Positions 26,630 through 64,000 of a DNA stretch of 64,000 nucleotides are shown one piece after another. The notes under the pieces are model-generated. The model saw only the letters and a list, made by a program, of their open reading frames with translations. It was not told the origin of the DNA and did not search any database. The DNA comes from an uncultured Alphaproteobacteria bacterium (GTDB taxonomy: Bacteria > Pseudomonadota > Alphaproteobacteria > RF32 > CAG-239): assembly GCA_944391615.1 (NCBI GenBank), contig CALXUE010000006.1, forward strand, positions 17,665 through 81,664, given 5' to 3'. The stretch's first letter is position 1. Each line of letters opens with the position of its first letter. The position numbers and the translations under genes are program-made.

Positions 26630-26741
26630 AATAAGTTGAAAAAGTAAACAAAAATTTAATCGATAAAGAAAAATAACTTGAGAAGAATAAAATTAGCAAA
26701 AAAAGATTGCCTAAACCCTTGTCAATCCTTGAAAATTTCTA

Positions 26742-26770
26742 TTTACAGCTTTTTATTTCTGTGCTATAAT
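26742..26770 (+). promoter_or_regulatory. Sigma70-type promoter of cassette 1 (TTTACA-17 bp-TATAAT) with an upstream CCTTG direct repeat
   Basis: The -35 TTTACA is at 26742-26747 and the -10 TATAAT at 26765-26770. The same 100-bp block is found at 39702-39799 and, inverted, at 35690-35788. CCTTGtcaatCCTTGaaaa lies at 26717-26735. Confidence 0.7.
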
Positions 26771-26806
26771 ACGAGTCGTGGAGATAAGTTGAAAGGTGTT
26801 TCGAAA

Positions 26807-27646
26807 ATGAAAAAACAAACTTTTTTGTTTTCAGCATGCAATGCTTTATTATGGCTTTTTAGTTATAATAATGTATATGCTGATGTTTCAAATTTCAAGA
26901 CAACAGACAAGGATTTTTTGACCAACACACAACACACACAGTTTTTGTCTGATGCCTCCGGCTTATCTCCCGATAAGTTTATCAAAGTTGCACAAGTTTG
27001 CTGGATTATGGACACCGGTGAATGTTTTGGTGTTAACTTTATTTCCGCTGACAGAGATTTGAATAATCCCTCTAACCCTGAAGATTATGTTCCCAAAGGG
27101 CCGGCTGATTGTATTGAAGAAGGTTATACCGTTACCAACTGTCCCAATGGCTATAAGGGCAACAAAGAATGTTTGTATGCCAAAGGGTATTATGCCGAAT
27201 GTATTGAAGACTGCCCCAGTAATTATAAACAATGTGAAGAGCCTTATCATGGTGTGGGGCAAGTTTGCGGCGATGGTTATTATGCCAGTTGTCAATGCGA
27301 CTACTGTGACGGATATTCCTACAAAAAAGAAGATATTCCCGATGGCTATGTGGCAGATGGTGAGCCTTGTAATTCATGCAATGGTCCAAGGTATAAAATC
27401 AAAGTCAACCCTTGTGAGGGTTATCAAGACTGCGGCTCGATGGGCGGCAAGGTCGGGGCAACATCCTGCTTGTCGGGCACGAATATGATGTATAGCGAAT
27501 GCAAACCTTGCCCGAGCTTAGGGGAATATGACACCTGTCCGCCGTGTTCGGTCTGTTCTTATGAAGAATGTTCCAACAAATATTATGTGACGGGTTGTGC
27601 TGCGGGCTGTCAAGATTACTGCGACTACTGCGCTTTTGAACAATAA
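26807..27646 (+). CDS. Cassette 1 gene A: secreted, extremely Cys-rich repeat protein of unknown family
   Basis: The start is at MKKQTF, downstream of the conserved promoter. It has a signal peptide (..NNVYA/DV) and more than 40 Cys in repeated CPxxY / GYYAxC / CxxC spacing. Paralogs lie at 34843-35682, 39803-40681 and 63826 to beyond 64000. Confidence 0.75.
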   Translation: MKKQTFLFSACNALLWLFSYNNVYADVSNFKTTDKDFLTNTQHTQFLSDASGLSPDKFIKVAQVCWIMDTGECFGVNFISADRDLNNPSNPEDYVPKGPADCIEEGYTVTNCPNGYKGNKECLYAKGYYAECIEDCPSNYKQCEEPYHGVGQVCGDGYYASCQCDYCDGYSYKKEDIPDGYVADGEPCNSCNGPRYKIKVNPCEGYQDCGSMGGKVGATSCLSGTNMMYSECKPCPSLGEYDTCPPCSVCSYEECSNKYYVTGCAAGCQDYCDYCAFEQ

Positions 27647-27691
27647 TCAGGGAAAGAGAGAGAAAGTTTAATTATTATTTAGGAGGAGAAA

Positions 27692-28489
27692 ATGAGAAAG
27701 TTTTTATTATATTCATCGGCTTTGGCGTTAGGTTTGAGCGGGGTGGCTGAGGCGGCCTGCATCCAAACACCAACGTGTTCATCTTTGGGCTACACCTCAA
27801 CTTCATCTTGCACCGGCGGAACCAAATGCCCCTTTGGCAATTACTGGAACTGCACCGCAGCTGACTTAAATAATAAGATTACGGAACTTGAAACCCAAAT
27901 CACTGAACTCAAAAAAGAAATGGTAATGTCTAACTGCCAAGTTGGTGATGTTTTGTATTCGGATATGACGATTAATCCTGATTATGTTAGTGGCAAAACA
28001 CCAATCGGCGTGGTATTTGATTGTCGAAAAAAATTAGCGATAGGGTTGGAGCAATCTGACGAAGAGTGGTCAATTACCGATGATTTTGATGTTCCTGGGG
28101 TTGAAAATATTACAGATACAACGAAGGTTTTGCAAGATATGGATGGAAAAAAGAATACGAGTACAATATTAGCCTATTGTAAAACAAAAGGGAAGCGTTG
28201 TCCGGCGTTTGAGTATGTGAATAGTTATAAAACAGAAGGAACTCAAGCAGGGGATTGGTACTTACCATCTATGGGAGAATTATATGCGATATATGGTAAT
28301 ATGGGTGTATTGAATGTTACGTTAATAAAAATAGTGGCAACAAGGCTTGTTGCAAGTTACTATTGGTCTTCTTCCGAGTATTCAAGCACCGACGCGTGGA
28401 ATTTGAGGTTCAGTAGCGGTAACGTGAACTACAACGATAAGTACCACAGTGCCGATTTCGGTTACGTTCGCCCAGTCCTAGCTTTTTAG
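27692..28489 (+). CDS. Cassette 1 gene B: secreted protein with a Cys-motif N-module, a coiled coil and a DUF1566/Fib_succ_major-like C-terminal domain
   Basis: It has an RBS GGAGGAG and a signal peptide (GVAEA/AC). The N-module is AACIQTPTCSSLGYTSTSSCTGGTKCPFGNYWNC, followed by a KITELETQITELKK heptad. The C-terminus PIGVVFD...AGDWYLPSMGELYAIYGN...YYWSSSEYSSTDAWNLRFSSGNV...YVRPVLAF resembles the Lcl C-terminal/DUF1566 pattern. Confidence 0.75.
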   Translation: MRKFLLYSSALALGLSGVAEAACIQTPTCSSLGYTSTSSCTGGTKCPFGNYWNCTAADLNNKITELETQITELKKEMVMSNCQVGDVLYSDMTINPDYVSGKTPIGVVFDCRKKLAIGLEQSDEEWSITDDFDVPGVENITDTTKVLQDMDGKKNTSTILAYCKTKGKRCPAFEYVNSYKTEGTQAGDWYLPSMGELYAIYGNMGVLNVTLIKIVATRLVASYYWSSSEYSSTDAWNLRFSSGNVNYNDKYHSADFGYVRPVLAF

Positions 28490-28518
28490 GTTCTTAATCA
28501 AAAACTCAAAAGCCCGTT

Positions 28519-28545
28519 CATTATGAGCGGGCTTTGGCTTAAGGT
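28519..28545. terminator. Bidirectional hairpin terminator between cassette 1 gene B and ispA
   Basis: AAAGCCCGTTCAT-t-ATGAGCGGGCTTT. The same stem core also follows cassettes 2 and 3. Confidence 0.6.
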
Positions 28546-28552
28546 GTCATCC

Positions 28553-29446
28553 TTAGTTTTTACGTTCGATGATATATGAGGCCAGTAGGCGCAGGTTTTC
28601 AGCTTTTGCTCCAAATGAGCTTAAAGCTTCTTGCGCTTTTTCAACCAGTTCTTTTTCAATTTGTTTGGCTTTATCTAGTCCGTAAAGACTAACAAAAGTC
28701 ATTTTGCCTTGAGCGGCATCTTTGTTCAAAGTCTTTCCCACCAGTTTTGGGTCCCCCTCGACGTCCAAAATATCATCAGCAATTTGAAAAGCGACTCCGA
28801 TTCCTCTAGAATATTCCAACAACTTTTGTCTTTCAGCATCAGATGCTTGTCCCAAAATTGCACCAGCCTCACAAGCAAAGCTAATCAAGCGGCCTGTTTT
28901 CATCTCTTCAATACGTTTTATAATTGTTTCGGAAGTTTGCTTAGGGTTATCTTCAGCATAAATATCAAGCATTTGTCCGGCAACCATTCCACCAAGAGCC
29001 CCAGCCCCTGACGACAATTTGGCAATCAGCTCACAGCGAATATCAGCAGAAGCCGTGCGGGCATCAGACAAAATTTCAAAAGCATAGGTCAACAAACCAT
29101 CGCCTGCCAAAATAGCCGTTGCCTCATCAAAAGCTTTATGGCAGGTCGGCTTGCCGCGGCGCAAATCATCATTATCCATAGCAGGCAAATCATCATGAAT
29201 AAGCGAATAGCTGTGCAAACATTCCAGAGCAACCGCCGTGCGCAAAGTTTTTTCAAAATCGAGGCCGAACAAGCTCCCCGTTTCATTCACCAAAAACGGA
29301 CGCATACGTTTGCCGCCGTTCATAACCGAATATTTCATCGCCTCGACCACCCGATTTTCGGGCAAATTACTAAGCGGAAAAAATTCGCTCAAACGCGCAT
29401 TAAAAGCCTGAGCATACGCAGAAAGTGTTTCTTTGATAGTCATCAT
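28553..29446 (-). CDS. ispA: Farnesyl diphosphate synthase (polyprenyl synthetase)
   Basis: The first DDxxD motif (LIHDDLPAMDNDDLRRGKPT) and the second motif (FQIADDILD) are present. Confidence 0.85.
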   Translation of the reverse strand: MMTIKETLSAYAQAFNARLSEFFPLSNLPENRVVEAMKYSVMNGGKRMRPFLVNETGSLFGLDFEKTLRTAVALECLHSYSLIHDDLPAMDNDDLRRGKPTCHKAFDEATAILAGDGLLTYAFEILSDARTASADIRCELIAKLSSGAGALGGMVAGQMLDIYAEDNPKQTSETIIKRIEEMKTGRLISFACEAGAILGQASDAERQKLLEYSRGIGVAFQIADDILDVEGDPKLVGKTLNKDAAQGKMTFVSLYGLDKAKQIEKELVEKAQEALSSFGAKAENLRLLASYIIERKN

Positions 29447-29454
29447 TGATTTAA

Positions 29455-30155: not shown

Positions 30156-30158
30156 GAT

Positions 30159-33927: not shown

Positions 33928-33953
33928 ACAAGTCAAAGCCCGCTCACTCAAGA
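33928..33953. terminator. Bidirectional hairpin terminator between aspS and cassette 2 gene B
   Basis: AAAGCCCGCTCAC-tcaag-AACGGGCTTT has the same stem core as 28519-28545. Confidence 0.6.
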
Positions 33954-33981
33954 ACGGGCTTTGTGGTTTTTGATTAAGAGC

Positions 33982-34797
33982 CTAAAAAGCTAGGACTGGA
34001 CGAACGTACTCGCTAAGGTAGTTCTTATAGTAGTAGTCCACGTATCCGTCACTGAACCTCAAATTCCACGCGAAGTCGCTTGAATACTCGGAAGAAGACC
34101 AATAGTAATTTGCACCAAGCCTTGTTGCCGCTATTTTCCCTAACGCAACATTTAACACACTCATATTACCATATATCGCATATAATTCTCCCATAGATGG
34201 TAAGTACCAATCTCCTGCTTTTGTTCCTTCTGTCTTATAGCTATTCACATACTCAAACGCCAGACAATGCTTCCCTTTTGTTTTACAATAAGCCAATACC
34301 GTACTTGTATTCTTTTTCCCATCCAAGTCTGCTATCGCTAATGTACGGTCTGTTATATTATCAACCCCTGGAACATCAAAATAATCTGGATATGACCAAT
34401 GTTGTTGAGATTGCTCCAACCCTATAGCCAATTTTCCACTATGGTCAAACACCACGCCGATTGGCGTTTTTGACACAACATAATTTGAATTGCACGTCAT
34501 ATCCGAATACAATATATCTCCGACCAAACAGTTGGCGGTTGAAACTTCTTTTTTGAGTTCAGTGATTTGGGTTTCAAGTTCCGTAATCTTATTCGTTTGT
34601 TCTGTAATCTTATCATTTAAATCGCTTGCGGTGCAGTTCCAGTAATTTCCGAAGGGGCATTTTGTTCCACCGGTGCAAGATGAGGTTGAGGTATAACCCA
34701 AGCTTGAACAACTCGGGGTCTGAATACAAGCCGCAAGTACAGTGTCGCTAAAACCAAACACTGCCAAAGCCGATGAATATAATAAAAACTTTCTCAT
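33982..34797 (-). CDS. Cassette 2 gene B (paralog of 27692-28489, about 80% aa identity)
   Basis: It has the same N-module (AACIQTPSCSSLGYTSTSSCTGGTKCPFGNYWNC), coiled coil and DUF1566-like C-terminus ending YVRPVLAF. RBS GGAGGAG. Confidence 0.75.
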   Translation of the reverse strand: MRKFLLYSSALAVFGFSDTVLAACIQTPSCSSLGYTSTSSCTGGTKCPFGNYWNCTASDLNDKITEQTNKITELETQITELKKEVSTANCLVGDILYSDMTCNSNYVVSKTPIGVVFDHSGKLAIGLEQSQQHWSYPDYFDVPGVDNITDRTLAIADLDGKKNTSTVLAYCKTKGKHCLAFEYVNSYKTEGTKAGDWYLPSMGELYAIYGNMSVLNVALGKIAATRLGANYYWSSSEYSSDFAWNLRFSDGYVDYYYKNYLSEYVRPVLAF

Positions 34798-34842
34798 TTT
34801 CTCCTCCTAAATAATAATTAAACTTTCTCTCTCTTTCCCCGA

Positions 34843-35682
34843 TTACTGTTCAAAAGCGCAGTAGTCGCAATAATCGGCACAACCTGTGGCGCAACCCGTC
34901 ACATAATATTTGTTGGAACATTCTTCATAAGAACAGACCGAACACGGCGGGCAGGTGTCATATTCCCCTAAACTCGGGCAAGGCTTGCATGCGCTATACA
35001 TCATATTCGTGCCCGATAAGCACGAGGTTGCTCCGACCTTGCCGCCCATCGAGCCGCAATCTTGATACCCCTCACAAGGGTTAGGCTTAATTTTATACAC
35101 CTCGCCGTTGCAGGATACGCAAGGCGCCCCGTCCGCCACATAGCCATCGGGAATATCTTCTTTTTTGTAGGAATAGCCGTCGCAGTAGTCGCATTGACAA
35201 CTGGCGTAATAACCATCGCCGCATTCTTGCCCCACACCATGATAAGGCTCTTCACATTGCTTATAATTACTGGGACAGTCTTCAATACATTCGGCATAAT
35301 ACCCTTTGGCATACAAACATTCTTTGTTGCCCTTATAGCCATTGGGACAGGTAGTAATGGTATAACCTTCTTCAATACAATCAGTCGGCCCTTTGGGAAC
35401 ATAATCTTCAGGGTTAGATGGATTATTCAAATCTCTGTCAGCGGAAATAAAGTTAACGCCGAAACATTCACCGGTGTCCATAATCCAGCAAACTTGCGCA
35501 ACTTTGATAAACTTATCGGGAGATAAGCCGGAGGCATCAGACAAAAACTGTGTGTGTTGTGTGTTGGTCAAAAAATCCTTGTCTGTTGTCTTGAAATTTG
35601 AAACATCAGCATATACATTATTATAACTAAAAAGCCATAATAAAGCATTGCATGCTGAAAACAAAAAAGTTCTATTTTTCAT
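34843..35682 (-). CDS. Cassette 2 gene A (paralog of 26807-27646, about 95% aa identity)
   Basis: It is collinear with 26807-27646 and nearly identical, including the signal peptide and Cys spacing. It lies downstream of the inverted copy of the promoter block. Confidence 0.75.
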   Translation of the reverse strand: MKNRTFLFSACNALLWLFSYNNVYADVSNFKTTDKDFLTNTQHTQFLSDASGLSPDKFIKVAQVCWIMDTGECFGVNFISADRDLNNPSNPEDYVPKGPTDCIEEGYTITTCPNGYKGNKECLYAKGYYAECIEDCPSNYKQCEEPYHGVGQECGDGYYASCQCDYCDGYSYKKEDIPDGYVADGAPCVSCNGEVYKIKPNPCEGYQDCGSMGGKVGATSCLSGTNMMYSACKPCPSLGEYDTCPPCSVCSYEECSNKYYVTGCATGCADYCDYCAFEQ

Positions 35683-35718
35683 TTTCGAAACACCTTTCAA
35701 CTTATCTCCACGACTCGC

Positions 35719-35747
35719 ATTATAGCACAGAAATAAAAAGCTGTAAA
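35719..35747 (-). promoter_or_regulatory. Sigma70-type promoter of cassette 2 (inverted copy)
   Basis: The reverse complement gives TTTACA (35742-35747), a 17-bp spacer and TATAAT (35719-35724). The CCTTG direct repeat lies at about 35755-35775 on the minus strand. Confidence 0.7.
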
Positions 35748-35846
35748 TAGAAATTTTCAAGGATTGACAAGGGTTTAGGCAATCTTTTTTTGCAAAAAAA
35801 ACGCCCGAGTTTTATCCTCGAGCGTTATAAAAATTATAAATTATGT

Positions 35847-39647: not shown

Positions 39648-39690
39648 GAAAAAATCTCTCAAGAATAAAAACTTGAGGGATTTTTTTTTG
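39648..39690 (+). terminator. Rho-independent terminator after secA
   Basis: The hairpin TCTCAAG..CTTGAGGGA is followed by TTTTTTTTT. Confidence 0.5.
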
Positions 39691-39745
39691 CAAAAAAAGA
39701 TTGCCTAAACCCTTGTCAAACCTTGAAAATTTTTATTTACAGACT

Positions 39746-39774
39746 TTTTTCCTTGTGCTATAATACGAGTCGTG
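39746..39774 (+). promoter_or_regulatory. Sigma70-type promoter of cassette 3
   Basis: TTTACA (39746-39751), a 17-bp spacer and TATAAT (39769-39774). The upstream block is conserved, including CCTTGtcaaaCCTTGaaaa. Confidence 0.7.
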
Positions 39775-39802
39775 GAGATAAAGTAATTGAAAGGAAATTA
39801 TC

Positions 39803-40681
39803 ATGAGTAAGCGGAAGTTTATCTTGTTGGCTTCGTTGTCTGTATGCGCGTTTGTTGCGGAGACGGCGCAAGCCGATATTTCTTCTTCAATGAATTATAT
39901 ATTCAAAGATGTTACACTTTTCAACACACTTCACACACATTTATCTTTGAATGGAGCTTTATCTCCACAACAAGTTTCAAAAAATCAAAAATCTTTGGTT
40001 AAGGTAGCCCAAGTCTGCTGGATTATGGACACGGGAGATTGCGCCGGTTTGGACTTTGTGAGTTCGGATATTAATGGTTCGGGCAATAAACCACCGAGCG
40101 AATATGACAAGAAAGGCCCTGAAGATTGTATCAAAGAGGGTTACACCATCACCAACTGTCCGGATGGGCAAAAAGGTGACGGAGAATGTATGTATGCCAA
40201 TGGCTACTATGCCAAATGTATTCCCGACTGCCCGTCATCTTATACCACCTGCACGTCGCCTTATAAAGGGGTGGGGCAAGTTTGTGGGGATGGCTTGTAT
40301 GCGGAATGTTGTCAAGACACTTGTCCGGCAGATTACAAATACACCTTAGGTTCAATTCCTGACGGATATGAGGCGGTTGGAGAACCTTGTGTGCAATGCA
40401 ACGGTAATAACACCACGGCAGTCAAAAAATACAGAGTGAAAGAAAAAGACTGTTCCGGATTTTTGGATTGCGGGACTTTAGGCTGTGAAACAGGGGCAAC
40501 GACTTGTCAATCAGGAAGCGTGGTTAAGTGTTCAAAATGCAAACCTTGCCCGAATTTGGGCTCAGAAAGTGAATGTCCACCATGCACAGTCTGCAGCTTT
40601 GAGGAATGTTCAAACTTATACATCGTCAGCGGTTGCAAAACAAATTGTACCGATTATTGCAACTACTGCGCTTCTGAATAA
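39803..40681 (+). CDS. Cassette 3 gene A (divergent Cys-rich paralog)
   Basis: It has a signal peptide (AETAQA/D), the conserved KVAQVCWIMDTGDC block and the same Cys-repeat architecture, ending CNYCASE. Confidence 0.7.
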   Translation: MSKRKFILLASLSVCAFVAETAQADISSSMNYIFKDVTLFNTLHTHLSLNGALSPQQVSKNQKSLVKVAQVCWIMDTGDCAGLDFVSSDINGSGNKPPSEYDKKGPEDCIKEGYTITNCPDGQKGDGECMYANGYYAKCIPDCPSSYTTCTSPYKGVGQVCGDGLYAECCQDTCPADYKYTLGSIPDGYEAVGEPCVQCNGNNTTAVKKYRVKEKDCSGFLDCGTLGCETGATTCQSGSVVKCSKCKPCPNLGSESECPPCTVCSFEECSNLYIVSGCKTNCTDYCNYCASE

Positions 40682-40722: not shown

Positions 40723-42003
40723 ATGAAAAAATTTTTATTATATTCAACCGCATTCGTAGTTTTGAGCGGGACGGCAAATGCAGCCTGTATCCAAACCCCG
40801 AGTTGTGCCAGTTTGGGATATGACAGTAACTCAGCCTGTGAAAATGGTCTAAAATGTCCGTGGGGCAATGCTTGGTATTGCAAAGTCGGAGAATTGGAGG
40901 AAGCAGTCAACAATGCCGAAAAAGCAAAAACTTGTATCCCCGGAGCCGTTTTTAACTCCGATCGTAGTTGTACCGAAAAACAAGAACTTGGCAAAATTCC
41001 GATTGGTGTTGTTGTCTATGCTGACGGCAAAGGCCACGGCCAAGCCATGGCTTTAGAAAAAATAGATATTGTAGCATTAAACAATTATTTAAAAACTGTT
41101 AAATACACAACTTTTTCTAAGTATCCAAATAAATATGCAGTAGAGTATCGTTACACTTATGCTAGACACTCAAGTGGAGATGAAGAATATGTAAAATGGC
41201 CTCAAGAAAAATGTATATCAACAGATGATATATATGTTAAAGGATTGAAAGAGTTTTCTAATTTAGAAGAAGCATCGCTTGAATTTGATAGTAAAAACAT
41301 TACAGCTCAAATACAACAATCACTAAACACAAATAATGCTAAGATTCAACAATATTTTAATACGGCGTCTGCATTAAATTCTATTGTGAATGAATCTAAA
41401 ATTATGGAGTGTAGTCGTTCTAATGTAGTAGGCTATCCATGTTATCTTTACGAGGTTAGTAATAAATCGGAATACTATTGGTATTCAGGTGATGCATCCA
41501 CATCTTTGCTTAAAACCATACAAAAAATAAAAGCTTATAAAACAACAGGAACCTCAGCTGGAGATTGGAATATGCCTGCCCCTGGAATATTTAATTCTAT
41601 AAAAGTAAATTTTGAAAAGATTAAAGAAACTTATGCCTTACTTAATAAAAATTTTAACTATAATCAAATGGTTACAATGGGAATGTATATCAAAAATGCA
41701 GGAGAAAAGACAAATAAAAAATGTACGTTTATGGATGCTAAATTTACGAGTAATGATGGTGATATAGATAAAAATTATCAAAGTTATCAATATGATTCAA
41801 GTTATTCAAGTCCATCAGACACGTACTCTCAGTATTACTATTATTATCTAATACCAACAACAGATTTCAATACTAAATTACCATCTGTTTCAGCGGAAAT
41901 AACATCATATCCAAAATACATAGCATTTTCAAATTCTGCAACGTATGGTACAGCAACCACATCATCAGGAGGAAAGCAAATCTATCCTGTAATTGACTTT
42001 TAG
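40723..42003 (+). CDS. Cassette 3 gene B (divergent, extended paralog with an N/Y/S-rich low-complexity C-terminal region)
   Basis: The N-module AACIQTPSCASLGYDSNSACENGLKCPWGNAWYC and the block PIGVVVY...GTSAGDWNMPAPGIFNSI align to the other B genes. The C-terminus is replaced by a Tyr/Asn/Ser-rich sequence. Confidence 0.65.
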   Translation: MKKFLLYSTAFVVLSGTANAACIQTPSCASLGYDSNSACENGLKCPWGNAWYCKVGELEEAVNNAEKAKTCIPGAVFNSDRSCTEKQELGKIPIGVVVYADGKGHGQAMALEKIDIVALNNYLKTVKYTTFSKYPNKYAVEYRYTYARHSSGDEEYVKWPQEKCISTDDIYVKGLKEFSNLEEASLEFDSKNITAQIQQSLNTNNAKIQQYFNTASALNSIVNESKIMECSRSNVVGYPCYLYEVSNKSEYYWYSGDASTSLLKTIQKIKAYKTTGTSAGDWNMPAPGIFNSIKVNFEKIKETYALLNKNFNYNQMVTMGMYIKNAGEKTNKKCTFMDAKFTSNDGDIDKNYQSYQYDSSYSSPSDTYSQYYYYYLIPTTDFNTKLPSVSAEITSYPKYIAFSNSATYGTATTSSGGKQIYPVIDF

Positions 42004-42064: not shown

Positions 42065-44272
42065 TTATTCTTCATCCTCATCGGCATCGTCGCCGTTATC
42101 TTCTTCAGGATTATAGTCAATACCGAGTTTGGCTAACATATCTTCATTAATATCTTCACGTTGCGCCACAATCCAATCCGGCACGCAAGGCGCAGGCGGT
42201 AAAGCGGCCAAAGCTTTCATTTTCTTATCCAAATACCAACGTGGAGAATCAGCCATAATCGGCCTGTCAATGGAACCTTGCATCAACACCACTTGCTTAA
42301 GCATAGGCAAGCTTAAAAGTTGCGTAGTCGAAATAACTGACGTTCCCTGCAATTGGTAAGACACATTTTTAGAAAATGGATTCGTACCTTTACCCAATCC
42401 CTCTGTTTTTGAAAAAGATGTTGTCTGCACCGTCTTGTTACCAATCATTTTAGAGAAACGTTGCGCAGTCACCTCGTTGTTTTGAGAAAGAATAACTTTA
42501 CAAGCCGTGGTAGAAATCACGGTTTCCAAATCATCCTTACCATACTTTCCGGAAATTTGCCCCAAGTCTTGCCCGATAAGCAAATACGACACTTTTTGAC
42601 CACGACCGACGGCCGGTCCGTCAATAATAGCGCGAAGCTTAGGCATTTGCGGAAACTCATCCAGCACAAACAAAGCAGGGAACGGCCCCATCACGCCATC
42701 AGACTTGTTGTGGAATTTTGGCGGATTCGCAATCAAATAAGATGACATCAATTCAATAAACGTTCCCGAAATAATGTTCAATGCGCGCGCATCAACCTGG
42801 TTAACGGACAAATAAACCGAAATCGGCTTCCACTCACCAGTCACAGGGTCTTTCATTCCGCGCAAATCCTTAAATTGCAAATCAGAAAAACTCGTGCGCG
42901 AAACCACAGCCGCGTTTTTGAAAATACCAATACCGGCCAAACCGGTAGACAACACGGAACCACGCTCTTTATCCGGCATGGCGCTGAGCTGGCTGAGTTC
43001 AACAATACACCGTTGTGAGTAACCAAACTTTCTGGCTTCGGTAATGGCTTCTTCCAACATATTGCGCATCGGGTCAGCCATAGCGGCCATCTGGTCGCCC
43101 TCATCCAAGCGGCGCTTAATTTCTTCCGATTGTTTGATTTGAGCTTCGGTAATCCATTCCAAAATCATGGCCAAGCAGGCTTCATGCCCAATCCATTTCT
43201 CCGGCAACAAAGCCCATGAGCCAATGGGCAAATAGTTATCAATGGTGAGTCTGCCGGCTCTCAGATCTTGAATAGCTCTGGCCGCCATTGGATCACGCAT
43301 CTCAAGATAATAGCTTTCCAACACACGCTTATCTTCATCATCCATTTTACCTTCATAAATACGCCCGATAAAATAGTCATTAGCGCGTGCTTTTTCACAT
43401 TTAAAAGACACAAAGTGAATAAATCCTGTCAAAGCGGCACGACCTGTTGTTGACCAGTGCGGGTCTGCTCCCCCCTTAGGCTCTTCCACCAAAATATTGC
43501 ACATAGAGTCAATATACATATCTCGGTCAGGTCCCGGAGCAGGCAATGCATTAGGCGAAAGCGGGTTCCAACTCGGATAATAAATACCTTCAGCCGGATT
43601 GTCTTCCGCACCCCAGTTAATCACAAATACAGGGCCGTCTTTGGCACGAGCTCCGGTTGTGGAATAGCACAACTCAGGCTTTGGGTCGTTTACGATAATA
43701 CTCAGGCCGTGTGAGTTAAAAATAGTCGGAATCACCACGCCGGCAGTTTTACCGGTACCCGGAGGCGCACAGCAAAGAGTTGCCAGAGTTTCTTTAAGCA
43801 TAAGCATTTTGCCGTTAAACTTTCCGACCACTTGACAAAAGCCGTCAAAACCAAGCAACGGCATTTTTTTAATATCTTTTTCAGTGGCCAATCTTGCCGC
43901 ACCATGAATATTAGATTGAAAACGATAAGGATTTGTCAAAAAACCAATCGTCAATCCCACCGGAAAGCTTATAAACGGCAACACCGGCACCCACAAACTG
44001 ACCGAAAAAGGTCCGTTATAATGAGTCAGTTGTTGAAACCAACTCCAATAACGAGAAGTCAAATAAGAAGGGTCGTTAAAAACAGCCTGCAAAAAGCGAT
44101 AAGCAACATCCATGCTTGTTTTGGAAATTCCGGCCCCGATAAGATAACCGATAGGCAGCGAAAAAACAGCCAAAAAAATCGTCAACACCAAAGTGACAAT
44201 AGCGGAAATAACCATCCACTGCACCGCATTGTCATATTCTTCCCATTCTTCACCGCGTTCTTCAGACATCAA
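42065..44272 (-). CDS. Type IV secretion coupling protein (VirD4/TraG/DotL family ATPase)
   Basis: It has N-terminal transmembrane helices and the T4CP signature HGAARLATEKDI (GSARWA-like). Walker A is CCAPPGTGKTAGVVIPT and Walker B/DEF is LFVLDEFPQMPKL...IGQDLGQI. The C-terminal tail is acidic (DNGDDADEDEE). Confidence 0.8.
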   Translation of the reverse strand: MMSEERGEEWEEYDNAVQWMVISAIVTLVLTIFLAVFSLPIGYLIGAGISKTSMDVAYRFLQAVFNDPSYLTSRYWSWFQQLTHYNGPFSVSLWVPVLPFISFPVGLTIGFLTNPYRFQSNIHGAARLATEKDIKKMPLLGFDGFCQVVGKFNGKMLMLKETLATLCCAPPGTGKTAGVVIPTIFNSHGLSIIVNDPKPELCYSTTGARAKDGPVFVINWGAEDNPAEGIYYPSWNPLSPNALPAPGPDRDMYIDSMCNILVEEPKGGADPHWSTTGRAALTGFIHFVSFKCEKARANDYFIGRIYEGKMDDEDKRVLESYYLEMRDPMAARAIQDLRAGRLTIDNYLPIGSWALLPEKWIGHEACLAMILEWITEAQIKQSEEIKRRLDEGDQMAAMADPMRNMLEEAITEARKFGYSQRCIVELSQLSAMPDKERGSVLSTGLAGIGIFKNAAVVSRTSFSDLQFKDLRGMKDPVTGEWKPISVYLSVNQVDARALNIISGTFIELMSSYLIANPPKFHNKSDGVMGPFPALFVLDEFPQMPKLRAIIDGPAVGRGQKVSYLLIGQDLGQISGKYGKDDLETVISTTACKVILSQNNEVTAQRFSKMIGNKTVQTTSFSKTEGLGKGTNPFSKNVSYQLQGTSVISTTQLLSLPMLKQVVLMQGSIDRPIMADSPRWYLDKKMKALAALPPAPCVPDWIVAQREDINEDMLAKLGIDYNPEEDNGDDADEDEE

Positions 44273-44290
44273 TCAATCCTTTAAGCACTT

Positions 44291-45655
44291 TTAAGCAAGG
44301 TTACGTACAATTTTTTTAATTTTTTCAAAGTCCTCTCTGCCGATAGGTTCCACAGCATCCGGCAAAGTTTTAGCAAAGAGTTTAATTTCTTTAGGCGTGC
44401 CTCTATCAATACGTGTCACATTCACCTTCAAATCGTTCCACACATCAAACATATCTTCAGCATTAATGATATTACCGATAGAAACCACCACAAAGGCCCC
44501 AACATTAAACCTCATACCTTGTTCATCAAGGGTTTCTGAAAGAACCCTGCGAGCAATATCAACTTTTCGCACCGGAGAAATTCTGTGGCTGCTTTCCGAA
44601 AACCACAAAGGCTCTTCATCATTAAATCTTTCTTCATCAGCCAACCAGTCACCTGGCTCTTTGTCAATCAAGCACAAAACAAGTTGATTTTTAGCCACAC
44701 AAACAAAGTCAATCAAATTTCCCTTAAACATAACGCCGTTAATCGTTTCAAAACCGTGTTGTCTAATAATATCAAACACAGAACTTCCACTGCCTTTCAT
44801 AGCGGCTGACTGAGTACTTTTGGATGTTGCCGGCAAATTCTGATTATCACGGTTTTTATTGTTGCGAGGTCTGTTTTCTCTAGACTCTCGAGGAGAAATA
44901 TCGCGATTATTATCTTTTTTCTGGGGTAAATTTTTCTTAAAATTATTATCAGTCTTTCTCTCAACCGGAGCTTGAGGTTTTGTTTCTTCTTCAGACTTTG
45001 AAAAATCAAAGTCATCAATATTAAAGTCAAAATCATCATCTTTGCTGTCCATGTCAAACAAAGAATGACTAAATTGCTTTGTTTCCTGAGGCTTGTTTTC
45101 AACAACGGGAATACTTTTTTGTGCGGGTATAATGCTGGGCGTAACACTAGGTGTAACTGTTGCGGAAGAAGCAAGAGTTGAGCGATTCTTGGTTGCAATC
45201 AAGCTGGTCGCATTTTCAGGCTCGGGGCGTTCGTCAAGGGGTAAGCGCAAACTTCTGGGACGCACTTCTTTATAAGATTTTTTCTTTTTAATATTTTTCA
45301 TACCGGCAGAAGTCGTAATGATTTTAACCGGCCTAAAGAAAAATTGCTTAAATATCTTCCACGGATAGGAAGCCGCTTTTACAAACAATTTTTCCCATTT
45401 AACCATGCTAAGTGCAGCCCAACCGCACAACCATAAAGGAATAAAGGTTAAGATAATCAACACAAAGGCCCATTCTTTAGGTGTATTAATAACCCAACCG
45501 GAAAGCCACAAATTCCAAGCATGACTCCAGTGTGAGGATTGAAACATGTCAAAATGCCAGTTTCTGAGCATAATAACACGAACCCCTTCAATGAAGAATA
45601 AACTCCAGAAGAGGCCGACGCATAAAATTCGTGTTAAAATGACCAACGGTTTCAA
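44291..45655 (-). CDS. Hypothetical membrane protein upstream of the T4CP gene (Trp-rich N-terminal membrane module paralogous to 45716-46201)
   Basis: The N-terminal hydrophobic helices carry the IPLWLCGW motif, followed by a basic low-complexity linker and a C-terminal globular domain. It lies 18 bp upstream of the T4CP gene. Confidence 0.45.
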   Translation of the reverse strand: MKPLVILTRILCVGLFWSLFFIEGVRVIMLRNWHFDMFQSSHWSHAWNLWLSGWVINTPKEWAFVLIILTFIPLWLCGWAALSMVKWEKLFVKAASYPWKIFKQFFFRPVKIITTSAGMKNIKKKKSYKEVRPRSLRLPLDERPEPENATSLIATKNRSTLASSATVTPSVTPSIIPAQKSIPVVENKPQETKQFSHSLFDMDSKDDDFDFNIDDFDFSKSEEETKPQAPVERKTDNNFKKNLPQKKDNNRDISPRESRENRPRNNKNRDNQNLPATSKSTQSAAMKGSGSSVFDIIRQHGFETINGVMFKGNLIDFVCVAKNQLVLCLIDKEPGDWLADEERFNDEEPLWFSESSHRISPVRKVDIARRVLSETLDEQGMRFNVGAFVVVSIGNIINAEDMFDVWNDLKVNVTRIDRGTPKEIKLFAKTLPDAVEPIGREDFEKIKKIVRNLA

Positions 45656-45715
45656 AGCATCAAACCCTTAATTAAAATATGACATGTAAGATAGCACAAC
45701 AAAGTTAATAATAGA

Positions 45716-46201
45716 TTATTTTTTTGCATCAGAAATTTTCTGATTAACGGCATCGCGAATTTGTGCCGTAAGTTTGGAATTATCCAAATCTTTTTCAATT
45801 TTTTTCAGTTCATCTTTAATTTCATCTTCTGCAGATTCTGTTTTAACTGAAGTTCCCAAATTTTTCAAGACAATTCTCGCAGTATTTTGTTCATATTCGG
45901 CAATTTTTTGGGCCGAATACCAATCAAAAGGTTTGGCCAAAAGTGCCATAATTTTAATTTTGAGAGCTTTTCTCCATCCCCAAATCCAAATTGGCAAAAT
46001 TGCAATAAGGATAAGAACAAAAACATAATCGGCAAACGAGCGAATAACGCCGCCTTCATTCCAAAAGGTGCTCAAGAGTTGCCAGTCTTGAAGCCGAAAC
46101 AAGCTAAAATTCCAAATTCCTTGTAAAATAAAATCAAACACGGAAAATAACAAAACCGACCACACAACGCCGACAAAACAAAATTTAATAAATTTTTTCA
46201 T
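45716..46201 (-). CDS. Hypothetical small membrane protein (paralogous N-module; LPIWIWGW)
   Basis: The start is at MKKFIKF. It has the same W...W..G.VI...FVLI..I.P.W..GW pattern as 44291-45655 and a charged coiled-coil C-terminus. Confidence 0.45.
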   Translation of the reverse strand: MKKFIKFCFVGVVWSVLLFSVFDFILQGIWNFSLFRLQDWQLLSTFWNEGGVIRSFADYVFVLILIAILPIWIWGWRKALKIKIMALLAKPFDWYSAQKIAEYEQNTARIVLKNLGTSVKTESAEDEIKDELKKIEKDLDNSKLTAQIRDAVNQKISDAKK

Positions 46202-46226
46202 GAGCGCTCCCAACAGCAACAAAAAA

Positions 46227-47672
46227 TTATCTGCCGCCTTCATTCAGTCTGTTAAAGTTGTTTTGGGCAACAACCGACTGACGATGAGTCTGATGCTTTT
46301 GTACATAATCGTTAGATAAGCGTGATTTTAATTTGTTAAGTTTGACTCGTCTAACGTTATTTTGCGCACGCGCATTGTCATTTGCAAGTTGCTCCTGCAT
46401 ATAAACATCAAAGGCCTTTGTATTGGCTTTTTCTTGCTGAAGATCATTAAGCAAAGCCTCGTGCATGGATTGTTTGGATCTTGCGCTCATATCGGTTCCG
46501 TCGCGAATTTGCAACAGATTTTGAACATATTTGTTTTCTTTATATTGGCCTTTTGACTTGCGTCCCAGCCATTTCTTTTTGCTATAGCCGACAAAGTTTC
46601 CTTTAACAACATTTTTGCGCATAACATCCAAACCTTTGTCAACATTATCTTTGAGCATAGCACTGGTATTGTAGGCGCTTTTGCCGCTTTTAACCGCATT
46701 TTCAATACTGCGCGCAAACAGAAGATAACCCTCATTTTTAAACTTAGCCATGGCTTTGTCCATGTCTTTAATCTCAGTATCATCAGGATTGCGCATTTTT
46801 GCATCCATAAACATAAGCTGAGCATAGTTATTGGCAAACTGCGCTGCGGCCACACGATAAGAATTATAGGCTTCTTGGCATTTTGCAATATTGTTTGTAT
46901 CTAAAAATTGATTAAGCTTTTTGGGGTCAGCGTTTTGAAGACGAGCTTTTTGTTGAGGCGTTAATCCCTCATAATTTCCTTCACGAATTTTTTGTGCTTG
47001 CTCAATAAGACTTTTATCGTTGTCATACAGAGCTTCTTTAGCGTTAATATCTTCAACAGCCTTCTTTTCGGCATCGTTCATTTTTTTATAAGTGTCATAA
47101 GACTGCAAAGCTTTTTCTGCTGGTTTTTGAGCATCTTGCAAATGTTGCTTGTATTTTTTATCATAATATCCGGACTTAGTCTTTTTGCAACACCATTTCC
47201 AAATTCCGTTTAAGCCGGCGATAAGCCAGTCATTGTACATATAGTCAATAATGTCGCCGGCCTTGAAGATATTATCTTCTTTATCATCATAGTCTGCTCC
47301 GCCGATTTCATCTGGCTTACGTGTGATTGAACCTGTCTTCTTCTCTTCGGGAGTATTTTGTTCTTCGGGAACTTTGACCTGCTCGTTAACGGTTGTTTCT
47401 TTATTTTTTTCGTTAACGGTTGTTTCCTTAACAGCCTCGTTAACGGTTGTTTCCTTAACAGCCTCATTAACGGTTGTCTCTTTAACTTCTTCATTGACTT
47501 CAAGGGTTTCGTCATCGTTTTCATTTACATTGACAGTATCTTGATTTTGAGTTTCTTGAGGATTAGCGTCATTAACTTCCAGTGTGTCCTGATTCGCGTT
47601 ATCTTGCGTCTCATTTTCGCTTACTTCAAAGGTATCATTATCTTTTTTCTCGTCGACCATATGTTTCACCAT
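46227..47672 (-). CDS. Hypothetical protein with an acidic N-terminal repeat region ((V/A)KETTVNE x4) and a Lys-rich helical C-terminus
   Basis: The ORF holds 27-bp tandem DNA repeats at about 47385-47480, an N-terminus rich in E/N/T/D and a K/Q/N-rich C-terminus. No recognised family. Confidence 0.45.
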   Translation of the reverse strand: MVKHMVDEKKDNDTFEVSENETQDNANQDTLEVNDANPQETQNQDTVNVNENDDETLEVNEEVKETTVNEAVKETTVNEAVKETTVNEKNKETTVNEQVKVPEEQNTPEEKKTGSITRKPDEIGGADYDDKEDNIFKAGDIIDYMYNDWLIAGLNGIWKWCCKKTKSGYYDKKYKQHLQDAQKPAEKALQSYDTYKKMNDAEKKAVEDINAKEALYDNDKSLIEQAQKIREGNYEGLTPQQKARLQNADPKKLNQFLDTNNIAKCQEAYNSYRVAAAQFANNYAQLMFMDAKMRNPDDTEIKDMDKAMAKFKNEGYLLFARSIENAVKSGKSAYNTSAMLKDNVDKGLDVMRKNVVKGNFVGYSKKKWLGRKSKGQYKENKYVQNLLQIRDGTDMSARSKQSMHEALLNDLQQEKANTKAFDVYMQEQLANDNARAQNNVRRVKLNKLKSRLSNDYVQKHQTHRQSVVAQNNFNRLNEGGR

Positions 47673-47745
47673 ACATTCATTTGTTTAATCTAACTTGATA
47701 GTAACACAAAAAACAAATTTTGTCCATTATTTTTGTTGAATACAA

Positions 47746-48657
47746 TTAAGCTTTTAGCTTTTTCAAAAAAGCCCCGATAATACGGTTCATCCGAATACCG
47801 TCTTGAGGTTTAACCTTAATAAGCCCAAAGAAACGCGGCTTTATTTTATCCACTTGAATAGGGGCAAAAACAGCCGGATTGTTTGTCAAAACCTTATAAG
47901 CCCCGTCAGCATCCTTGCGAGCGGTTTTAAAATAGTTTTTCACCAGCCTGTCAGCATCAATCGGAAATTTCTTTTTATTGATAGCCTCGATATATTTGTT
48001 CATCAAATTAATACGGCGCTGATGCTGCAAATATATTTCGCGTTCCAAGCGCTTTTTTTCCCGCTTAAGCTTTCGTTCCTTATAAGCAATTTCGCGGCCT
48101 TCCATTTCAATCAACGATTCAACGTAGGAGATAATGGCAAATTGCAAAGTATCATCTTGAAGTTTTTCTGCAAAATCCAGAAGCTGCTCATCAGTAGATT
48201 GCAAAGAAATTTGCCCCACAATATCAGGATAAGCCTTAATCAAAATGTCCCAACCTTTTTCAAAATCTTCGGCAATAATTTTGCCTCTGCTGGGTTTATA
48301 ATGAGGCGTCAAATCCATCGGCTGTAATCTAAACTTACGAAAAGACAAATTCTTGTCCTTTGCAATCATGTTAAGAGCATCTTCAAAATTTCGATAAGCT
48401 TTGAACAGAGCTTTTTCAGACTTGTCAAGAGCATCTAATTCAGGGTCCTCTTCCTCAATGTCGCTGTTGTCTTGCGTAAAATTTGCGACCTGTATGTTTT
48501 CTTGAGGCACCTCGACATCGTGAACAACATCGGTCTTTTTTTGAGAAGAGAGCGTATCATCAATATCAACATCTTCCAGTTGGTTATTGATAAAGTCATT
48601 CAAGAGCTTTTCAAACTCACTGTCATCATTTTCAGCCATGAAGCAATTATCTCCCAA
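47746..48657 (-). CDS. Hypothetical acidic protein
   Basis: The N-terminus is very acidic (ENDDSEFEKLLNDF..DVDIDD) and no domain is recognised. It lies in the same minus-strand gene string. Confidence 0.4.
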   Translation of the reverse strand: MGDNCFMAENDDSEFEKLLNDFINNQLEDVDIDDTLSSQKKTDVVHDVEVPQENIQVANFTQDNSDIEEEDPELDALDKSEKALFKAYRNFEDALNMIAKDKNLSFRKFRLQPMDLTPHYKPSRGKIIAEDFEKGWDILIKAYPDIVGQISLQSTDEQLLDFAEKLQDDTLQFAIISYVESLIEMEGREIAYKERKLKREKKRLEREIYLQHQRRINLMNKYIEAINKKKFPIDADRLVKNYFKTARKDADGAYKVLTNNPAVFAPIQVDKIKPRFFGLIKVKPQDGIRMNRIIGAFLKKLKA

Positions 48658-55060: not shown

Positions 55061-55066
55061 AAAATA

Positions 55067-61360: not shown

Positions 61361-61365
61361 TCTTT

Positions 61366-62109
61366 TTATAAATCAAGGGGCTCACCCAAGCGCAAAACAC
61401 GGTGAGACAAAGGGGTGTATTGCCCGTCATCATTATGGATAACAATGCTGGGATGGATGACAAGGGGCGCTTTAGAGTCTTTTTGCGCAGAGATAAGAAC
61501 ACGCTTTGCTTGAGTTTGTTCAGGCTTTGAAAACAGTGGAATAACATGAATGTTTCCCGTTTTTTTATGGAGAGCAAACAAAATGTCATCCAAAGCTTCA
61601 GCACGATTAATCAAATAGAGTTTTCCTTGAGGGGCAAGCATTTTAATACAAAATCCAATCCACTCAAAAAGAGAGAGAGTAGAAAAGTTATGTGCGGTTG
61701 CTTTGCTCTTGTTAGGTGATGGCATATCTAAAAGAGCATAGGGAGGGTTGGATATCACATGGTTAAAACTGCAAAATTGTAAACCATCGGGCAGGGGAGC
61801 GGCAATGTCAGTGTTTATAAATTTCACAAAGTCAAAGCCGTTTTCTTTTGCGCTGATGTTAGAGAGCTCGGCCAGTTCGGGCTGAATTTCCAAACCGGTA
61901 ATAGAAATATTTTTGTTTTTGAATCTTTCAGCTAAGCAGAGTGAAATAGCCCCTGTACCGGAGCCGACATCCAAAATTTTTTCATGAGGTTTAACACCAG
62001 ATAAAAGAGCCGAAAGGAAGACCGCATCGGTAGATGCGCGGTATCCATCAAGGGGTTGAAAAATTTTAACTTTCTTGTCGAGCAAATAATCCTGACTGTA
62101 ATTTTGCAT
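61366..62109 (-). CDS. Class I SAM-dependent methyltransferase with an NPPY motif (TrmN6/YfiC-like or HemK-like)
   Basis: Motif I is ILDVGSGTGAISL and motif IV is VISNPPY. The 247-aa length fits. Confidence 0.6.
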   Translation of the reverse strand: MQNYSQDYLLDKKVKIFQPLDGYRASTDAVFLSALLSGVKPHEKILDVGSGTGAISLCLAERFKNKNISITGLEIQPELAELSNISAKENGFDFVKFINTDIAAPLPDGLQFCSFNHVISNPPYALLDMPSPNKSKATAHNFSTLSLFEWIGFCIKMLAPQGKLYLINRAEALDDILFALHKKTGNIHVIPLFSKPEQTQAKRVLISAQKDSKAPLVIHPSIVIHNDDGQYTPLSHRVLRLGEPLDL

Positions 62110-62195
62110 AACACCTCAAAAATCGGTTGACTAATAAAAGCACGGAAGTTAAAATAGCCTAAAATAAAAAATAAATCAAATCAAAAGAGGAACAA

Positions 62196-62861
62196 ATGAT
62201 AATCAAAAACATATTCTGGGATGTAGACGGCGTGTTGGCTAACTTAAATTACGCGTACTATAATTTTTTGACCAAGCATCCCAAATATGCACCGCTTTAT
62301 AAGGATATGAAATGGTCTGACTTACCCAAAGTTCTTCCTGTGGCAGAAAAATACGGAGCCTTGGAGTTAAAGACACATCCGAGCTTGGGCATAGAGATGG
62401 ACAAGGACTTTTGCGGCAGTTATGAGTTTTTTTCCAACCGCCCGCTATACCCGAATGTGATTGAAACATTGAAAGAATTGCATAACTTGGGGTACAAACA
62501 GTTTACCATGTCGGCAACTTTTGATGTTGAAACCAAGAAAAAATTATTAAACCATTTGTTGAAAGACGTGAGTGATTTTTTGACCATAGAATGCGTTCAG
62601 CATGGCAAATTTATGCACGATTCGGCCAAAGAAGATATGTTGAAAGCCTGCTTTGAAAAATATGGCCTAAAGGCGGAAGAAACCGTTTTGGTTGATGACA
62701 GAATATACAACCAGTATGCCGCGATAAACGTTGGGGTGCATCCGGTCAGAATGCGGAGCGAGTTCACCACCGACCTGCCGGCAGAATTGAACTGGATTCC
62801 CGAGGTGAGGGATGTTGTTGAATTTAAAAACTGGCTACTCGCCAACACCACAAGAGAATAA
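62196..62861 (+). CDS. HAD-superfamily hydrolase (5'(3')-deoxyribonucleotidase-like)
   Basis: The N-terminal DxDGV motif (WDVDGVLAN) is typical of the HAD phosphatase family. Confidence 0.5.
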   Translation: MIIKNIFWDVDGVLANLNYAYYNFLTKHPKYAPLYKDMKWSDLPKVLPVAEKYGALELKTHPSLGIEMDKDFCGSYEFFSNRPLYPNVIETLKELHNLGYKQFTMSATFDVETKKKLLNHLLKDVSDFLTIECVQHGKFMHDSAKEDMLKACFEKYGLKAEETVLVDDRIYNQYAAINVGVHPVRMRSEFTTDLPAELNWIPEVRDVVEFKNWLLANTTRE

Positions 62862-62867
62862 AAAATA

Positions 62868-62897
62868 AAGGCTGTTGCTTCCCCAACAGCCTTTTCT
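62868..62897. terminator. Bidirectional hairpin terminator
   Basis: AAGGCTGTTG-cttcccc-AACAGCCTT is flanked by T/A runs. Confidence 0.5.
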
Positions 62898-62900
62898 TCT

Positions 62901-63791
62901 TTAGAAAGCAATCACTGGACGAGCTATGTAAACATAATGATAATAACCAGTAAATCCATCATAAATACTATCTCCGGTATTCGTGTGATTTATTGATGTT
63001 TTATTTTCTTCACCCCTCCCATATAAATAAGCCTTTTGTTTATCTATCGCTGTTGAAGTCCAATAATAGACATTATAAACATGTTGCTGATGGTTTCCAT
63101 GGCTATTTGAATAGTCATAAAGAGGTTTTTTATTTATTTTCTTAATAGTATCATTGATGGTACTTTTGTGAGTGCTAATATAGTTAAACTCCACAAAAGA
63201 TGGCAAATGCCAATCTCCGGCACTTGTACCGGCGGTTTTATATTCATAGGCATATTCCACTGCCGGACAGCTTTTACCGTTTGCTTTACAATATTCATAA
63301 ATAACTCGGGTGTTTTTTTTCCCCCATCCATCATATGCATAATCATTCGGATGCAAATCGAGCCCTGGGATATCAAAAGCAGTCGTTGACCACGCAACAT
63401 TTTCTTTTTCCTCCAAAGCCACAGCCAAATAGTTTGTCACATCAAACACCACGCCGATTGGCTCTTTGGTGTAAACCACGTCTGTGTTACAGCTAAAATC
63501 ATCATACAAAATATCACCAACTTTGCAGTTTACCTTGTTTTCATTATTGGAGCCTTGCTGAATTTTTTTGATTGTGGTTTCAAGTTCGGTAATTTTGTTA
63601 TTAAACTCTGTTTTAATATCATTAATGCTGCAGTTCCAAGCGTTGCCAAACGGACACTTTGTTCCCCCCGAACAAGACGAACTCGAGGTGTAGCCCAAGC
63701 TTGAGCAGCTTGGCGTTTGAATACACGCCGCCTCAGCCACGCCACTTAACCCCACCACCAAAGCTGAACTCATTAATAAAATCTTTCTCAT
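62901..63791 (-). CDS. Cassette 4 gene B (paralog with the Cys N-module and a DUF1566-like C-terminus)
   Basis: The start is at MRKILLM with RBS GGAGGAG; the longer tracked ORF is an out-of-frame read of the A-gene 3' end. The N-module is AACIQTPSCSSLGYTSSSSCSGGTKCPFGNAWNC, the coiled coil is KITELETTIKK, and the C-terminus is AGDWHLPSFVEF...YYWTSTA...YIARPVIAF. Confidence 0.7.
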   Translation of the reverse strand: MRKILLMSSALVVGLSGVAEAACIQTPSCSSLGYTSSSSCSGGTKCPFGNAWNCSINDIKTEFNNKITELETTIKKIQQGSNNENKVNCKVGDILYDDFSCNTDVVYTKEPIGVVFDVTNYLAVALEEKENVAWSTTAFDIPGLDLHPNDYAYDGWGKKNTRVIYEYCKANGKSCPAVEYAYEYKTAGTSAGDWHLPSFVEFNYISTHKSTINDTIKKINKKPLYDYSNSHGNHQQHVYNVYYWTSTAIDKQKAYLYGRGEENKTSINHTNTGDSIYDGFTGYYHYVYIARPVIAF

Positions 63792-63825
63792 TTTCTCCTC
63801 CATTATAATAATTAAACTTTCCTCT

Positions 63826-64000
63826 CTCTTGCCCTTATTCAAAAGCGCAGTAGTTGCAATAATCGGTACAACCCGTTTTACAGCCCGAAACGACATATAA
63901 GTTTGAACATTCCTCAAACGTGCAGACCGTACACGGCGGACATTCACTTTCTGTACCCAAATTCGGGCAAGGCTTGCAACGTGAGCATTTTGTCACACTC
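63826..64000 (-). CDS. Cassette 4 gene A, 3' portion (continues beyond the window end)
   Basis: The reverse-strand translation ends ...CTDYCNYCAFE-stop, matching the C-termini of the other A genes. The ORF is open to the window edge. Confidence 0.6.

Follow-up and report, generated by a model that had tools for sequence, protein, structure and literature searches.

Two-gene cassettes in an uncultured gut alphaproteobacterium as probable dispersed targets of a chromosomal diversity-generating retroelement

Diversity-generating retroelements (DGRs) are, to our knowledge, the only targeted protein hypermutation system in prokaryotes, and most described DGRs act on one adjacent gene. The 64,000-nucleotide stretch of uncultured alphaproteobacterial DNA analysed here (contig CALXUE010000006.1; hereafter ‘the window’) contains four copies of a two-gene cassette, in which a gene for a secreted cysteine-rich protein (A1–A4) precedes a gene for a second secreted protein (B1–B4). 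Our analysis indicates that these cassettes are probably dispersed target operons of a chromosomal DGR in uncultured gut Alphaproteobacteria, with A as a new partner protein. A first-pass annotation of the window had described a conserved, expanding and diversifying two-gene module of secreted proteins, and the results reported below support that description.

The domain found in B is well known as a DGR target. In human microbiomes no domain is targeted by DGRs more often than DUF1566, and the structure 4EPS serves as a structural model for DUF1566 targets (PMC4159848). The domain forms DGR target category ‘d’ (CLec2), of which Legionella LdtA is an example (Wu et al. 2018, PMC5758913). The Legionella pneumophila DGR, like the loci that we describe below in relatives of the present organism, is chromosomal and includes an Avd-type accessory gene, a template repeat and a reverse transcriptase (RT). 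Like B, LdtA is exported and has its variable region at the C-terminal end of a C-type-lectin fold of the DUF1566 type, but LdtA is a surface lipoprotein (PMC5758913), whereas B has a Sec-type signal, a five-cysteine module and a helix. Unlike the target of the LdtA system, the B targets are many, remote and separately promoted, and each is preceded by a cysteine-rich A; the related loci carry 2–4 tandem templates.

The DGR of Treponema denticola (TvpA family) is a precedent for one retroelement acting in trans on several non-adjacent targets, as we propose here. TvpA belongs to the FGE-sulfatase class of C-type lectins, and we know of no paired cysteine-rich partner described for it. One related metagenome-assembled genome (MAG) of another species, BRZ_CI bin98 (L001–L027), has at least 13 distinct variable regions that share the exact framework anchor TGGTCTTCTTCCGAG, more than the maximum of seven non-adjacent targets given in a 2018 DGR survey (PMC5758913).

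Three further families share the head domain or a relative of it. Legionella Lcl (8Q4E; PMC11162425), like B, carries an Lcl_C head C-terminal to a stalk, which is a helix in B and a set of collagen-like repeats in Lcl; B has no collagen repeats. Lcl is reported to bind sulphated glycosaminoglycans (PMC11162425), and the literature examined contained no DGR link for Lcl. The tip and fimbrial proteins of Bacteroides type V pili (BACOVA_04982, 4EPS; FimD) have a DUF1566-like C-terminal domain and provide the best match to the B head, but B lacks their N-terminal pilin domains. The Fib_succ_major proteins of Fibrobacter succinogenes (TIGR02145) form a large exported paralogous family with conserved cysteines and a DUF1566-related domain (PMC5758913); they occur in a different taxon and no A partner is known for them. 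A Fib_succ_major-like C-terminus had initially been attributed to B, but none of the B proteins matches TIGR02145 in NCBIfam at E ≤ 1.

In literature searches covering DUF1566, DGRs and systems with several templates or targets, neither the A partner nor this alphaproteobacterial system was described. The first-pass annotation had named no described system pairing these two protein types. This holds for A, but the B half is of a known kind, a remote DUF1566/CLec2 DGR target. What is undescribed in the searchable literature is the cysteine-rich partner, the number of dispersed and individually promoted cassettes, and the tandem arrays of 2–4 different templates.

The variable region of B and its templates

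In broad agreement with the architecture originally proposed for B, B1 and B2 have a signal peptide, a five-cysteine N-terminal module (N-module), a helix and an Lcl_C/DUF1566 head. Their scores for Pfam Lcl_C (PF07603) are 36.6 and 36.5 bits, above the gathering threshold of 34.9 bits; B4 is sub-threshold at 20.5 bits and B3 has no Pfam Lcl_C match. Two narrower NCBIfam models align with parts of B at scores far below their cut-offs: NF046116 (adhesin_Lcl; 20.1 bits, cut-off 500) over the C-terminal domain only, and NF052322 (FimD_tip_adhes; 17.7 bits, cut-off 170) over residues 168–250 only. The AlphaFold2 (AF2) model of B has a mean predicted local distance difference test (pLDDT) score of 80, with values above 90 for the head (residues 85–265). 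Structure comparison matches this head to 4EPS, a fimbrial protein of Bacteroides ovatus (E = 2.4e-8), to 8Q4E, the C-terminal domain of Lcl (E = 1.5e-4), and to snake-venom C-type lectins. The variable region described below occupies the C-terminus of this C-type-lectin-type fold. Long B variants of about 455 residues (P0080, P0099, P0107) contain two tandem Lcl_C heads; what B3 has in common with these is limited to its initial ~100 residues and one brief internal segment.

Sequence variation among B proteins is sharply localized to the last ~35 codons. Across 83 close homologs, entropy reaches ~3 bits at 18 columns within residues 230–257, and these columns are interspersed with the invariant framework residues WSSSE, AW, L, F, G, K and VRPVLAF. 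Nine equal-length B copies from two species have the same framework codons, synonymous sites included, while their variable codons take the form NNC or NNT, positions 1 and 2 being scrambled; upstream of the variable region, third codon positions vary normally. Adenine changes in AAY codons cannot yield K, E, Q, M or W, and these residues make up 4.4% at the hypervariable columns versus 21.6% at other variable columns. Such a C-terminal pattern is the hallmark of mutagenic retrohoming by a DGR. An early suggestion that B diverges faster than A is too simple: the divergence is concentrated in the C-terminal DGR-type variable region. The framework of the variable regions in bin98 is itself of at least two types (TCT..GCT and TCA..GCG; TTG and CAG).

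The 3′ boundary of the variable region resembles the initiation of mutagenic homology (IMH) element of known DGRs. The terminal sequence TACGTTCGYCCAGTCCTAGCTTTT is conserved in both variable regions and templates, and homology stops there. This IMH-like boundary together with a hairpin 20 nt downstream has the arrangement predicted for a DGR target; the requirement for a downstream hairpin is known from phage BPP-1 (PMC3240598).

A template pattern was inferred from the variable regions and used to scan viral contigs and metagenome contigs. It occurs at 17 loci in metagenome contigs from human gut samples and retrieved real DGRs. The same pattern had no match in the viral contigs; with this result and the housekeeping gene context of the cassettes, a phage origin is unsupported. 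One contig (L084) contains two template repeats, consisting of nearly all AAY codons on the B framework, upstream of a 458-residue RT that carries the DGR motifs IGNLTSQ and YVDD and has ligA and infC as neighbors. Homologs of this RT are abundant in gut Alphaproteobacteria MAGs and in the BRZ cohort. Canonical loci are also present. L098/L099 are arranged as an A-like cysteine-rich protein (283 aa), B (Lcl_C), bAvd, a template repeat and the RT; L095 and L120 as A, B, bAvd, three to four tandem templates and the RT; and L081/L092 and L083 carry a template repeat and an A–B pair on one contig. Where variable region and cognate template can be compared within a locus, the differences are confined to adenines: 16/36 adenine sites and 0/69 other sites are changed in L098, and 14/40 and 0/64, respectively, in L095.

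In related DGR loci, 2–4 tandem template-repeat units lie between bAvd and the RT, each with a conserved ~130-nt upstream element (Table 1). Only one of the four L095 templates matches the adjacent variable region, and the others presumably serve remote cassettes. Contig L084 begins with a Nextera adapter sequence (AGATGTGTATAAGAGACAG, positions 1–41), and contigs with RT genes often terminate close to the template repeat or within it (L117–L119, L121). These two observations suggest that DGR repeats break assemblies; the DGR finding accounts for the breakage at cassette and DGR loci, and also for the presence of at least 1203 clusters of B homologs at 90% identity compared with 71 for A.

The closest template to the variable regions of the window lies on contig L121, from gut metagenome sample BRZ_QQ of the BRZ cohort, which also yielded a 100%-identical copy of B1. 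It is positioned directly upstream of the RT P0347 and is nearly identical to the predicted template. Compared with this template, B2 is changed at 17/42 adenine sites and 2/75 other sites with no gaps (Fisher p = 2e-7), and B1 at 15/42 adenine sites and 2/75 others, plus a 6-nt insertion. The templates of L084, L113, L114, L108, L098 and L119 were rejected as cognate, the best one tested having at least 12 non-adenine mismatches.

Contig L116 allows a strain comparison, as it shares synteny with cassette 2 and has 98.9% identity across 4975 nt of flanking DNA. Its B gene is a mosaic with a B2-like 5′ part and a B1-like center; the center has 7/414 mismatches to B1, and the variable region 30/84. 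This mosaic shows that diversity also arises by paralog recombination, which could explain some of the variable-region swaps.

Several of these observations weigh against assigning the window cassettes to a DGR. Each variable region retains two non-adenine mismatches, B1 also has the insertion, and the L121 template, on a contig from another sample, is near-cognate with its origin in the same genome unproven. The window contains no RT, Avd or template repeat detectable by exact, mismatch-tolerant or framework-only patterns or by tblastn with RT and Avd. B3 and B4, both diverged paralogs, have no variable region of this class, the 3′ end of B4 showing only a degenerate resemblance to one. The difference in the L116 variable region involves a switch of framework type (TCA..GCG to TCT..GCT), which could reflect a second template or paralog gene conversion. 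Finally, AF2 confidence is low at the conserved A N-terminus and in the B N-module. Because the window is devoid of RT, Avd and template, B1 and B2 would be remote targets, and B1 could plausibly be served by a longer second template, given that relatives carry at least two.

These same points bear on the possibility that B1 and B2 are fossil targets, with variable regions written by an ancestral DGR that is now lost or inactive and with diversity arising only through paralog recombination and ordinary mutation. The lack of DGR parts in the window, the two non-adenine mismatches to the best template, the cassette decay illustrated by B3 and B4, and the recombinant L116 B gene would all fit this reading. 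We nevertheless regard it as unlikely: the framework and IMH-like end are intact with synonymous sites identical across species, differences between close strains are about 20-fold denser in the variable region than elsewhere in B, and homologs of the RT are plentiful in this cohort and clade. We infer that a chromosomal DGR is probably active in this genome at present.

The cysteine-rich partner

The A proteins contain 28–30 cysteines, not the more than 40 estimated initially, and carry their own signal peptide. As had been anticipated, they have no recognizable domain in Pfam, NCBIfam or fold searches, and comparison with known disulfide-rich modules (EGF, furin-like, CCP, granulin and antifreeze) gave neither a sequence-profile nor a fold match. 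A conserved motif, KVAQVCWIMDTGDC, is present. In the protein, a conserved but disordered N-terminal segment would precede a rod built from small β-hairpin modules with disulfide bonds. Once the presumed signal peptides are removed, the cysteine counts are odd in both partners, 27 or 29 for A (A1, A2 and A3) and 9 for B (B1, B2 and B4), five of the latter lying in the N-module. Such counts are compatible with a putative intermolecular disulfide.

The A family is small and taxonomically restricted. It comprises 71 clusters at 90% identity in an index of 5.8 billion proteins and 392 representatives at E ≤ 0.001 among 1.84 billion proteins. In the genome collection it is confined to MAGs of uncultured gut Alphaproteobacteria and Pseudomonadota, in which tblastn confirmed 124 copies. 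At least 26 copies are found in bin98.

The pairing of A with B was checked in relatives and holds. In bin98, 22 of the 26 A copies are paired with a B gene and three more are fused to one (25/26 in total); 14/23 copies are paired in bin96 and 5/20 in the other MAGs combined, where many contigs are short and longer multi-domain A-like proteins are included. Natural fusions of A with an Lcl_C head occur in L013, L017 and L023, and L052 encodes a 1117-residue protein with the A N-terminus and a C-terminal Lcl_C domain identified by Pfam. The cysteine module of the B N-terminus, C..LGY...C....KCP.......C, also ends the A-like proteins L035, L071, P0056, P0067 and P0071. Taken together, these arrangements suggest that A may be the constant component that scaffolds or anchors B's variable head.

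Co-transcription of A and B need not mean that they function together, and A could instead be a separate disulfide-rich factor, such as a toxin, a bacteriocin-like protein or a matrix protein. Its own signal peptide and its lack of detectable homology to the B head would fit such a role, as would the 24/43 A-family proteins in more distant MAGs that have no adjacent B. We think this improbable in view of the gene order and spacer conserved in all window cassettes, the paired or fused state of nearly all bin98 copies, the natural fusions, the cysteine module common to A and B, and the position of A ahead of B within canonical DGR loci as well. A physical interaction between A and B, their location at the cell surface and a ligand for B are all putative.

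Cassette anatomy and genomic setting

ORF listing and translation confirmed the four cassettes at the positions first assigned to them, with A4 truncated by the end of the window (Table 1). The measured identity of A1 and A2 agrees with the 95% estimated earlier, and that of B1 and B2 (78%) with an estimate of ~80%; A1 and A3 are 53% identical, somewhat above the 40–50% proposed for the cassette 3 copy.

Table 1. Positions of cassette features in the window and of tandem template arrays in related contigs
Feature	Position	Strand	Description
Cassette 1 upstream block	26693–26787	+	TTTACA at 26742, 17-nt spacer, TG-extended TATAAT ending at 26770; start of conserved 5′ untranslated region
A1	26807–27646	+	Cassette 1; secreted cysteine-rich protein, 279 aa, 28 Cys
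A–B spacer	27647–27691	+	Cassette 1; GGAGGAG ribosome-binding site, conserved in 4/4 cassettes
B1	27692–28489	+	Cassette 1; signal peptide, five-Cys N-module (residues 22–55), helix (residues 56–80), Lcl_C/C-type-lectin-like head
B1 variable region	28364–28489	+	DGR-type; framework starts at TGGTCTTCTTCCGAG; 3′ end TACGTTCGCCCAGTCCTAGCTTTTTAG is IMH-like
Hairpin after B1	28509–28535	+	20 nt past stop codon; likely terminator and candidate DGR target-recognition hairpin (putative role after PMC3240598)
Hairpin after B2	33934–33963	-	Past stop codon
B2	33982–34797	-	Cassette 2; Lcl_C protein, 78% identity with B1
B2 variable region	33982–34101	-	DGR-type
A2	34843–35682	-	Cassette 2; 279 aa, 95% identity with A1
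Cassette 2 promoter block	35702–35796	-	Conserved
Cassette 3 promoter block	39687–39781	+	TTTACA at 39736 to TATAAT at 39764
A3	39803–40681	+	Cassette 3; 292 aa, 30 Cys, 53% identity with A1
B3	40723–42003	+	Cassette 3; long divergent B paralog, N-module kept, without Lcl_C match or variable region of the B1/B2 class
B4	62901–63791	-	Cassette 4; diverged B paralog, Lcl_C match sub-threshold, C-terminus only degenerately similar to variable region and IMH
A4	about 63838–64000	-	A3-like gene, last 53 codons only, truncated by window end
Tandem template arrays	L084 49–500; L113 452–1061; L114 717–1320; L095 about 3390–4520; L120 3846–4990		Also L090, L091, L096

The conserved promoter noted at first inspection is part of an upstream block of ~95 nt, which occurs exactly three times in the window, in cassettes 1–3, versus zero occurrences expected by chance. 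The predicted promoter within the block (TTTACA-17-TATAAT with an extended −10 TG) matches 11/12 consensus positions. Together with the 5′ untranslated region, this block (GAAAATTTCTATT..TGTG.TATAATACGAGTCGTGGAGA) is found with two or fewer mismatches in about 26 cassettes of bin98 (L001–L027, around 5860–5990), the A proteins of which are only about 48% identical to A1. Such conservation suggests common regulation or homogenization. An Rfam search of the window found only one tRNA, and the conserved 5′ untranslated block matches no RNA family. An invertible promoter was considered and rejected, with no inverted repeats reported to flank the promoter block and only the whole-cassette inverted repeat described below being found.

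The order A then B, with a spacer of 41–49 nt, is the same in all window cassettes, and the GGAGGAG-containing spacer first noted as conserved is borne out in each. A terminator hairpin had also been proposed for each cassette. Each of the B genes does have a stable hairpin of 11–12 bp beyond its stop codon (z −3.5 to −4.7), but a simple terminator scan made no call at these positions because the T-run is weak.

Housekeeping genes flank the cassettes, among them those for RNase D, AspRS, a PpiC-type rotamase, SecA, a polyprenyl synthase and UvrC. With such neighbors, a prophage or genomic island was rejected as the setting. Cassettes 1 and 2 form an inverted repeat of 1034 nt with 94% identity (26693–27726 and 34763–35796), which encloses the housekeeping block from polyprenyl synthase to AspRS and is a substrate for inversion or gene conversion. 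Downstream of cassette 3, the region 42065–48657 begins with a gene for a VirD4/TraG-type type IV secretion coupling protein (42065–44272, minus strand). It is followed by four ORFs without a Pfam match, one of which has a 27-nt tandem repeat at 47382–47516.

Proposed mechanism and meaning

In the mechanism that we propose, the near-consensus promoter of each cassette would drive a single A–B message. B would be exported by its Sec-type signal peptide, the short helix probably mediating oligomerization, and the ligand-binding tip of the Lcl_C head would be encoded by the last ~35 codons. A DGR elsewhere in the genome, comprising Avd, at least one template repeat and the RT, would copy template RNA into cDNA with template adenines randomized, and this mutated cDNA would replace the variable regions of B1 and B2, guided by the conserved 3′ end and the downstream hairpin. 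The expected products are variants rich in Tyr, Asn, Ser, Asp and Gly on a fixed framework. Recombination between paralogous cassettes would shuffle B by a second route, and B3 and B4 would be older paralogs that no longer carry a variable region of the B1/B2 type. With less certainty, A would be the invariant partner that most likely binds and presents B, or anchors it.

A two-component adhesin family diversified by duplication, positive selection and gene conversion alone, with no retroelement involved, would fit the many paralogs, the mosaic structure and the inverted repeat of cassettes 1 and 2, but is very improbable and largely refuted by the template and variable-region statistics, as it cannot explain frozen synonymous sites beside scrambled codon positions 1 and 2, the depletion of K, E, Q, M and W at hypervariable columns, or adenine-only differences to templates beside an RT and Avd.

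An extended form of the DGR proposal, which we offer tentatively and consider rather less probable than the assignment of the cassettes to a DGR, is a two-subunit surface receptor. An invariant, disulfide-rich A stalk would display a lectin head, B, that is rewritten by the DGR, and many separately promoted cassettes (four in the window, about 26 in the related MAG) would be served in trans by one retroelement with 2–4 templates. The result would be a germline-plus-somatic binding repertoire larger than that of any multi-target DGR in the 2018 survey.

This lineage thus appears to have scaled up the DGR, with dozens of dispersed target operons under their own promoters, multi-template loci and an obligate cysteine-rich partner. 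If A is indeed a presenting scaffold, the cassettes would represent a new display architecture for DGR-diversified binders, and could offer a compact two-part chassis for engineered diversification.

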